Shown here: positions 8,998-9,171 of the stretch, piece by piece
How the letters are laid out: every line of letters starts with the position of its first letter
Numbering within the stretch: position 1 is the stretch's first letter
Origin: Simkaniaceae bacterium
GTDB lineage: Bacteria > Chlamydiota > Chlamydiia > Chlamydiales > JACRBE01
DNA: 64,000 nt
Direction of reading: 5' to 3'
NCBI GenBank assembly: GCA_021734805.1
Contig: JAIPIG010000001.1
Location: 15,560-79,559, forward strand
Position numbers and translations under genes: made by a program
The notes under the pieces: generated by a model
What the model saw: the letters and a program-made list of their open reading frames with translations, nothing else
Databases searched by the model: none
Told to the model about the DNA's origin: nothing

Positions 8998-9171
8998 TAT
9001 ACCGAAATAAATTGAAGAGTTGGTTTTTATCTTCGCTGGCATCTTCGACTTTTTATTCATAATTTTTTGAGCTATCTCCAATAGGATCAAAAAATTATGT
9101 CGGCTAAAGCCTAATAAAAATTCAAAGCGCCATCTTTGCTAAAACCCCAACTCTTCAACTCATTTCGGTAT
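8998..9171 (+). mobile_element. MITE-like element, copy 1 (about 174 bp, about 26-bp terminal inverted repeats)
   Basis: Left end TATACCGAAATAAATTGAAGAGTTGG. The right end reverse-complements to TATACCGAAATGAGTTGAAGAGTTGG. Near-identical copies lie at 34253-34427 (same orientation) and 41808-41982 (inverted). No coding capacity. Confidence 0.85.

Follow-up and report, generated by a model that had tools for sequence, protein, structure and literature searches.

A probable MITE family with a whole-length hairpin in an environmental chlamydia-like bacterium

What kind of element is a 175-bp non-coding repeat that recurs between the genes of a chlamydial genome, and what could have moved it there? 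The question is raised by positions 8998-9172 of the stretch of 64,000 nucleotides that was analysed here (hereafter the window; G+C 40.4%), which derives from a MAG labelled Simkaniaceae. Bacterial MITEs are shorter than 200 bp, are A+T-rich, carry terminal inverted repeats and 5'-TA-3' termini, and can form RNA hairpins (PMC2229807; PMC10969869). The window element fits this textbook description in its size, inverted repeats, TA, A+T-richness, intergenic position and hairpin, and it is read here, with a probability of about 0.78, as a non-autonomous DNA transposon (a type II MITE) of an environmental chlamydia-like bacterium; the MITE family is genuine and, it appears, so far undescribed. 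In a type II MITE, only the termini would be shared with the parent IS. An earlier note, made from the letters of the window, had arrived at the MITE reading, which has held up: the element is small and non-coding, has inverted-repeat ends, is dispersed in both orientations and is absent from the corresponding spacers of syntenic relatives, and further support has come from related genomes, in which diverged members, half copies and nested insertions occur. The RNase G encoded in the window shows 100% identity with a protein of the Simkaniaceae-labelled MAG; its next relatives are 75-79% identical to it and include those of Rhabdochlamydiaceae MAGs. The nearest relatives of the source MAG are Rhabdochlamydiaceae-type genomes.

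Three full copies, each of 175 bp, are located at 8998-9172 (copy 1, + strand; counting the outer TA pairs as target duplications would limit the element proper to 9000-9170), 34253-34427 (copy 2, + strand) and 41808-41982 (copy 3, - strand, inverted). The places and strands first assigned to them were correct, the end of copy 1 excepted, which falls at 9172, one base beyond the 9171 originally given. The copies had been described as collinear with scattered substitutions, and they align without a gap across the 175 bp at 92-97% identity (97% between copies 1 and 2, and 92-93% between copy 3 and either of these); similarity ends at the first base beyond TATACCG...CGGTATA, and the flanks are unrelated. 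All three are intergenic, as had likewise been claimed, and they occur in both orientations and in unrelated gene contexts: copy 1 is found 105 nt 3' of tRNA-Leu(GAG) (8810-8893) and 280 nt 5' of ORF 9453-10028, copy 2 in the plsX-rng spacer, 38 nt 5' of the longest rng ORF and 83 nt 5' of the publicly annotated rng ATG, and copy 3 between two genes that point away from each other, a DTW-domain gene and a thioredoxin-like one, at 34 nt 5' of the ATG of the latter. Stop codons are present in 6/6 frames of the element, and the longest open stretch is 48 codons. The DTW gene beside copy 3 had been called truncated, which proved mistaken: its homology to orthologues of 156-161 aa is unbroken in one frame from 41730 to 41281 and covers their full length. 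No ATG, GTG or TTG was found before 41625 (41626-41742), and ATT occupies the position of the orthologues' start Met; the gene has either a non-canonical start or is an incipient pseudogene.

The description of the ends as terminal inverted repeats of ~26 bp was also upheld. A search for the terminal pattern TACCGAAATRARTTGAAGA gave six exact matches, one per end of copies 1-3, where shuffling gives an expectation of 0.18; the terminal arms of 31 nt are 84-87% complementary, and the inverted repeats measure 26-31 nt. The ~26-nt terminal repeat reads TACCGAAAT(A/G)A(A/G)TTGAAGA(A/G)T(T/C)GG. The two ends of every copy differ, one containing ...AAATAAATTG... and the other ...AAATGAGTTG..., and as the ends can thus be distinguished, the orientation calls are sound. 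In the mechanism proposed for the family, a transposase supplied in trans would bind the ~26-nt terminal repeat (TACCGAAAT...) at both ends, would excise or copy the 171-bp body, and would insert this body at a TA dinucleotide that is duplicated in the process.

All six ends in the window read TA/TACCG...CGGTA/TA, so the earlier claim of a TA at both sides of every copy is correct (6/6 ends), and an outer TA is carried by 16/17 inspected ends when those of the relatives are included (a hand count over the sequences); one diverged copy, in contig L010, has CA in place of TA at one flank. With the element taken out, the flanks would be predicted to join as ...GAGTA / AATAAC... for copy 1, ...CAGTA / TACCGAAATGAG... 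for copy 2 and ...TGATG / TA / TGAATC... for copy 3. The junction of copy 2 with a neighbouring solo end is CGGTA-TA-TACCG, with exactly one TA between the two, and a degenerate copy at 34478-34618 has TA at both flanks. A single TA common to two TACCG...CGGTA elements is expected if one inserted into the flanking TA of the other, and the junction favours TA duplication because elements ending in TATA would have to overlap by 2 nt. These arrangements strengthen, short of proving it, the idea of a TA target duplication that was raised in the earlier note, and the TA is rather probably a duplicated target than a part of the terminus.

Insertion was also examined in four syntenic relatives, found via their RNase G: L007 (a Logan contig), L010/L011 (JGI), L013 (the Rhabdochlamydiaceae MAG GCA_030408475.1) and L014 (ENA). 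Gene order is kept (UvrD, thioredoxin-like, DTW, permease ... YceD, L32, PlsX, RNase G, acyltransferase, M16 peptidase), and the relatives' spacers are too diverged for base-level alignment with the window (RNase G 75-79% identity). The thioredoxin-DTW spacer measures 78 bp in L007, 48 bp in L010 and 42 bp in L014, and 279 bp in the window, of which the 175-bp copy 3 and ~104 bp make up the whole. The genes plsX and rng overlap in L007, and an unrelated gene of ~200 aa lies between them in L013 and L014; the corresponding 660-bp spacer of the window consists mostly of copy 2, the solo end, the degenerate copy and a 120-bp hairpin, and holds no recognisable trace of the ~200-aa gene. Copies 2 and 3 are thus insertions that the relatives' orthologous spacers do not have, those spacers being short, absent or filled by a different gene. 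The ~200-aa gene is itself fast-evolving, with 22% identity between its two representatives (L013:9294-9926 and L014:8752-9345); it is absent from the window and L007, and L010 has a different ORF of 133 aa instead.

Members of the family were encountered in other genomes as well. A scan with the terminal pattern of a genome collection that does not include the source genome returned one true match, a Rhabdochlamydiaceae MAG contig (L001) that ends inside a copy, and one chance match in Synechococcus, and a metagenome scan with the terminus returned the contigs L004, L005 and L006, which hold partial or full diverged copies. Full diverged copies are present at L010:9077-9251 (65% identical to the window family) and L005:3736-3910 (61%), and partial, half or hybrid copies in L001, L004, L005 and L006, giving relatives in five contigs overall; no family copy was found in the ~21 kb each of L007, L013 and L014. 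Across lineages, the terminal 26 nt are nearly constant, and the interior has diverged yet is still self-complementary. Both ends of the L010 copy share one change, CCG to CAC (TATACAC.../TGTACAC...). Constant ends, and ends that change together as in L010, are what a putative transposase-binding terminus predicts. In L004, another palindromic element is nested in a family copy; unrelated palindromic repeats, nested in or fused to half copies, were recorded at L004:1863-1975, L005:540-660 and L006:4380-4500, one of the nested palindromes having the ends TACCATTTATCAAAAATAAG... and a second, with GGCACGT...GTGCCAAAATCT, being common to L005 and L006. Related chlamydial genomes thus seem to carry several MITE-like families.

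Within the window, the tally comes to three full copies, one degenerate copy, one solo end and four short end motifs. The solo terminal fragment TATACCGAAATGAGTTGGGT (34426-34445, + strand) abuts copy 2, with one TA in common, and matches the G-type terminus at 19/26 positions, the first 18 exactly. The degenerate, probable fourth member of the family (34478-34618, + strand, ~141 bp) has the ends TATACATAAACAAACTCAAAAG and TATACACAAACGAACTCAAAAG, is self-complementary (-36.9 kcal/mol) and matches the L005 copy at a blastn E of 0.001; its match to the family profile is weak (E = 0.72), and it resembles the L010 subfamily. Next to it, a 120-bp hairpin (34628-34747, no strand assigned) with the ends CTCGTGATTCAAGAGTTG / CAATTTTTGAATCACGAG has a left arm like the sub-terminal region of the MITE (82% identity to copy 1 over 33 nt, E = 0.003) and may be a related repeat. 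Decay of the family is shown by its solo ends, its half copies and the insertions nested within copies. The elements may possibly still be mobile in the source genome, a suggestion made, with some doubt, because copies 1 and 2 are 97% identical.

The bare end motifs follow a pattern of their own. The 10-mer TATACCGAAA occurs 11 times in the window, where 0.22 occurrences are expected, five of these being additional to the six full ends; the MITE-free loci of the relatives do not contain it. Isolated motifs noticed earlier at 8624-8633, 31411-31420 and 47506-47515 are real, and two more occurrences were added at 1396-1405 and 34426-34435, the latter being the start of the solo end. The four bare motifs are TATACCGAAATGA at 1396-1408 (+ strand; 10-mer at 1396-1405), which overlaps the stop codon of ORF 449-1408, TATACCGAAATA at 8622-8633 (- strand), between a fucosyltransferase-like gene and tRNA-Leu, and TATACCGAAA at both 31411-31420 (- strand), 32 nt 5' of the M16 peptidase gene, and 47506-47515 (- strand), beside a terminator-like hairpin. 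They match the terminus for 10-13 nt only, with no further similarity to the element, and were called intergenic; two of them adjoin terminator hairpins. Random deletion or decay is no explanation for so sharp a boundary at 10-13 nt, and it is a further possibility that the excess of bare termini (TATACCGAAA) represents a separate recognition site for a putative, possibly domesticated, transposase.

Run SRR12088349 provides short-read contigs with genes of the window, and these contigs end within MITE termini, exactly 30 nt in. One of them, L015, begins at 9143, 30 nt inside the right end of copy 1, on a 30-mer common to copies 1 and 2, and another, L003, begins at 41837, 30 nt inside the end of copy 3. 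The 30-mer on which L003 breaks is unique in the window, and the simplest explanation is that the sample contains one or more further copies of the copy-3 subtype outside the window. This evidence is indirect and falls short of the high genome-wide copy number that the earlier note had supposed. The same contig stops on the first 30 nt of the 120-bp hairpin at 34628-34747, and because this 30-mer too is unique in the window, the hairpin is probably repeated elsewhere in the genome.

Each copy folds from its first to its last base as a single hairpin (z = -6.6 to -12.5), and the folding of whole elements bears out what had been said earlier of a self-complementary interior and a long hairpin. 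The fold of copy 1 is valued at -57.5 kcal/mol on the + strand and -74.9 kcal/mol on the - strand; in copies 1-3, the strand reading TATACCGAAATGAG... attains -72.5 to -74.9 kcal/mol and the opposite strand -46.9 to -57.5 kcal/mol. The 4-6 transition mismatches per copy are all G.U on the TATACCGAAATGAG strand and A.C on the opposite strand. Across three diverged lineages, 21 of the 72 pairs in the hairpin arms have changed on both sides; shuffles gave 7.8 +/- 2.2 such pairs, and sliding of the partners no more than 12. Promoter and terminator scans gave no signal above chance, and no IHF-type signal was detected; when Rfam 15 was run over the window, tRNAs alone passed the gathering thresholds and no family matched the MITE, its best weak match being MIR8562, a plant miRNA hairpin whose gathering score of 211 lies far above the 29.9 bits attained.

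Against the MITE reading stands the failure to find an autonomous element with the family's termini in the window, 15 fetched loci, plasmids or viral contigs, the plasmid and viral-contig searches having yielded nothing or chance-level matches only; nor would a simple IS deletion derivative be predicted to have a palindrome that runs its whole length rather than over its ends only. No partner IS was present in the metagenome-scan contigs L004-L006, no IS630-type gene was seen in anything examined, and protein searches with a 61-aa transposase fragment from L004 and with concatenated six-frame MITE peptides gave no matches. A transposase of the TA-targeting IS630/Tc1-mariner kind is only tentatively put forward, as an argument of compatibility from the TA only, because no transposase with matching ends was found. 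Two transposase N-terminal remnants with the motif ...NAVFWILRTGAPWQNLPPDYGGWSNTHRRF..., which we take by motif recognition rather than profile search to be of the IS5 family, were observed in the window at 60708-60812 and 61523-61797 (- strand), where they bracket a small hydrophobic ORF (60933-61337) without a Pfam match; they comprise 84-nt direct repeats that are 98% identical and have the common end GTCACGAGACAAAAAA. As parents of the MITE they were rejected, their end being unrelated to the MITE terminus.

Several other accounts of the family have to be weighed against a TA-duplicating MITE. The family could be a MITE that is neither TA-duplicating nor IS630-like, with TATA forming part of the terminal repeat and with an IS5-family enzyme of the IS427 type as the mover, for example, or an enzyme that has died out or has yet to be recognised, as with the Correia elements of Neisseria. 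This is unlikely, although it deserves some weight: TA and TATA are palindromic and so present the same letters as an inverted repeat would, with relatives' spacers that offer no base-level alignment; the base outside TATA is A at 6/6 left ends and 6/9 right ends (hand count), which hints at a wider AT-rich target; the window has IS5-family remnants; and no IS630-type gene was seen in any sequence examined. The CGGTA-TA-TACCG junction speaks against it, as it would need TATA-ended elements to overlap by 2 nt and is exact under the TA model, as do the unrelated end GTCACGAGACAAAAAA of the IS5-like remnants and the finding of no 3-, 4- or 8-bp direct repeat beyond TA around copies 1-3, whose 8-bp flanks match at 5/8, 0/8 and 2/8 positions. 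A descent by deletion from an IS66-family IS was considered in view of the metagenome contig L004, in which 47 nt separate a family terminus, ...TTATTTCGGTATA, from the preceding end of a sequence that encodes the C-terminus of an IS66-family transposase (L004:1-183; NF033517, E = 5.9e-6; 44% identical to annotated IS66 transposases). Directly after the stop codon, however, comes the right repeat of the IS66 element itself, CCCCCTGAACAAATAC, a homologue of CCCCGTGAACAATTAC, the right repeat of a complete relative in a cyanobacterium (left repeat GTAACCGTTCAAGGGG), and the sequence beyond it, CTTGTCAAATTC...TTATTTCGGTATA, is MITE interior and terminus, as in L005. The IS66 terminus being upstream of MITE sequence, the IS lies inside a MITE copy, and IS66 was rejected as the parent; moreover, the MITE ends TATACCGAAAT are not IS66 repeats (GTAA...), and the window copies have no 8-bp duplication of the kind typical of IS66 insertion, so that this origin is highly improbable. 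What L004:1-197 (JACCEC010359811.1) does record is the 3' end of an IS66-family element inserted in the interior of a family copy. That the repeat is not mobile at all, and represents a segmental duplication or an assembly artefact, is scarcely credible: nothing was found in its favour, the flanks of the copies differ as soon as TATA ends, the junctions recur in independent short-read contigs, and other organisms have homologous elements.

A further account is compatible with a MITE origin and concerns what has happened since: the element, once spread by transposition, may have been kept because its ~85-bp hairpin works as RNA or ssDNA, for instance as a site of processing or stabilisation by RNase III or RNase E/G, a transcription barrier or a small-RNA precursor, all of which are possible roles, and its self-complementarity would then be under selection. 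The paired changes in the arms (21/72 against 7.8 +/- 2.2 in shuffles) favour such an exaptation, as do the far better folding of one strand in all three copies, with transition mismatches that are all G.U on that strand, and the position of copies 2 and 3, which lie 34-83 nt 5' of start codons and are so oriented that the strand that folds better is the sense strand. Each of these points is countered, however. In a DNA palindrome, covariation of the arms does not separate RNA-level selection from concerted arm evolution, and it is equally expected from the latter or from independent births of subfamilies; the G.U bias amounts to ~4-5 events inherited from one master copy (p ~0.06-0.12), so that the strand asymmetry may hint at RNA function but does not count as evidence for it; copy 1 is turned the other way with respect to the gene that follows it; and the promoter, terminator and Rfam results given above are at chance or below threshold. 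Exaptation is accordingly considered improbable, and more improbable still is the specific proposal, which arm covariation and one-strand G.U might suggest, that an orphan chlamydial MITE spans several lineages and that selection on one strand maintains its hairpin over the whole length; if true, the hairpin would be transcribed and would have a regulatory or processing role ahead of genes such as rng.

Comparison with known systems helps to place this MITE. REP/BIME repeats, which are RAYT-mobilised, are GC-rich palindromes of 20-40 bp with a GTAG or CGTC head and form clusters of alternating orientation; the window element is unlike them, with its 175 bp, its AT-rich sequence, another head and copies that stand singly. 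Rickettsia palindromic elements are inserted in frame into protein genes, with an ORF through the element, and the window element does not resemble these either, all its copies being intergenic with stops in every frame. By mechanism, the family is closest to RUP/IS630-Spn1, and by its missing parent it is closest to the Correia elements, with no sequence relation to either. The Correia elements of Neisseria, like type II and other orphan MITEs, have no known cognate transposase; they are 100-155 bp long, with an IHF site, promoter elements and an interior that is not self-complementary. The window MITE differs from them in its unrelated terminal sequence and in showing no promoter or IHF-type signal. 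YPAL has no TA ends and is associated with duplications of 3-26 bp, and together with ERIC/IRU, Nezha and the Coxiella QMITE it resembles the window MITE in being an imperfect palindrome over its whole length, predicted to form one long RNA stem-loop, although sequences and hosts differ; QMITEs, unlike the window MITE, also have traceable parent ISs. What Correia elements share with the window MITE are inverted repeats of ~26 bp, a terminal TA, intergenic positions near gene starts and a hairpin transcript (in part PMC2229807). RUP is likewise small, non-coding and intergenic, has terminal inverted repeats, inserts at TA and targets mobile elements (PMC2229807), and the plsX-rng spacer of the window, with copies inserted side by side, resembles it in this respect as well. 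In contrast to the window MITE, which has 175 bp, is palindromic throughout and has no matching IS among those found, RUP is 107 bp long and its inverted repeats match an IS630-family element (IS630-Spn1) in the same genome; the two have no sequence similarity. Elements such as QMITE, ERIC and RPE are found in intracellular or host-associated bacteria (PMC10969869), and the IS982-derived MITE of Cardinium, a symbiont of Oedothorax gibbosus, is comparable to the window MITE in being newly recognised, in residing in a repeat-rich endosymbiont of arthropods or protists and in inserting into mobile elements (PMC9769881). The Cardinium MITE is lineage-specific and its intact parent IS has been identified (PMC9769881), whereas the window family spans several chlamydial lineages and no parent was found for it.

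The genome reduction of Rhabdochlamydia has been attributed to transposase-bearing ISs (PMC9723776), and papers on Rhabdochlamydia genomes count these only (PMC9723776; PMC9997750). MITEs in Chlamydiota are not mentioned in two reviews (PMC2229807; PMC10969869), and none surfaced in full-text literature searches. A transposase-free family that fills spacers, breaks short-read assemblies and lies upstream of genes is invisible to annotation based on transposases, and with the MITE family included, the tally of mobile DNA in chlamydial symbionts would rise. It also explains where contigs of the source organism end, and its terminus, TATACCGAAAT..., provides a marker for finding the responsible transposase.

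Other repeats were observed in the window. Between the acyltransferase and M16 peptidase genes, 31489-31653 is a near-perfect palindrome of 165 bp with 75-nt arms that are 85% complementary (-90.8 and -117.1 kcal/mol, z -19 and -20); it has TA at both sides (cacTA/AGTGTC...AACAC/TAgta), is single-copy in the window and in all fetched loci, and probably represents a second MITE-like family. A 164-bp palindrome, ATCTCGACTTTGTACA...TGTACAAAGTCGAGAT (54165-54328; -86.8 and -96.1 kcal/mol), occupies the spacer before ORF 54352-56133 and is single-copy in the window, without TA flanks. Paralogous segments at 10046-10836 and 58294-60653 encode DUF4116-containing proteins and share 300 nt at 92%, 220 nt at 88% and 67 nt at 91% identity; the short-read contig L015 also breaks at this repeat. 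Finally, a 32-nt stem-loop, TCCTCCATAAACAGAGGAG followed by a T run, is present in three copies (8687-8718, 11638-11669 and 18211-18242), two of them near tRNA genes, and looks like a reused intrinsic terminator.
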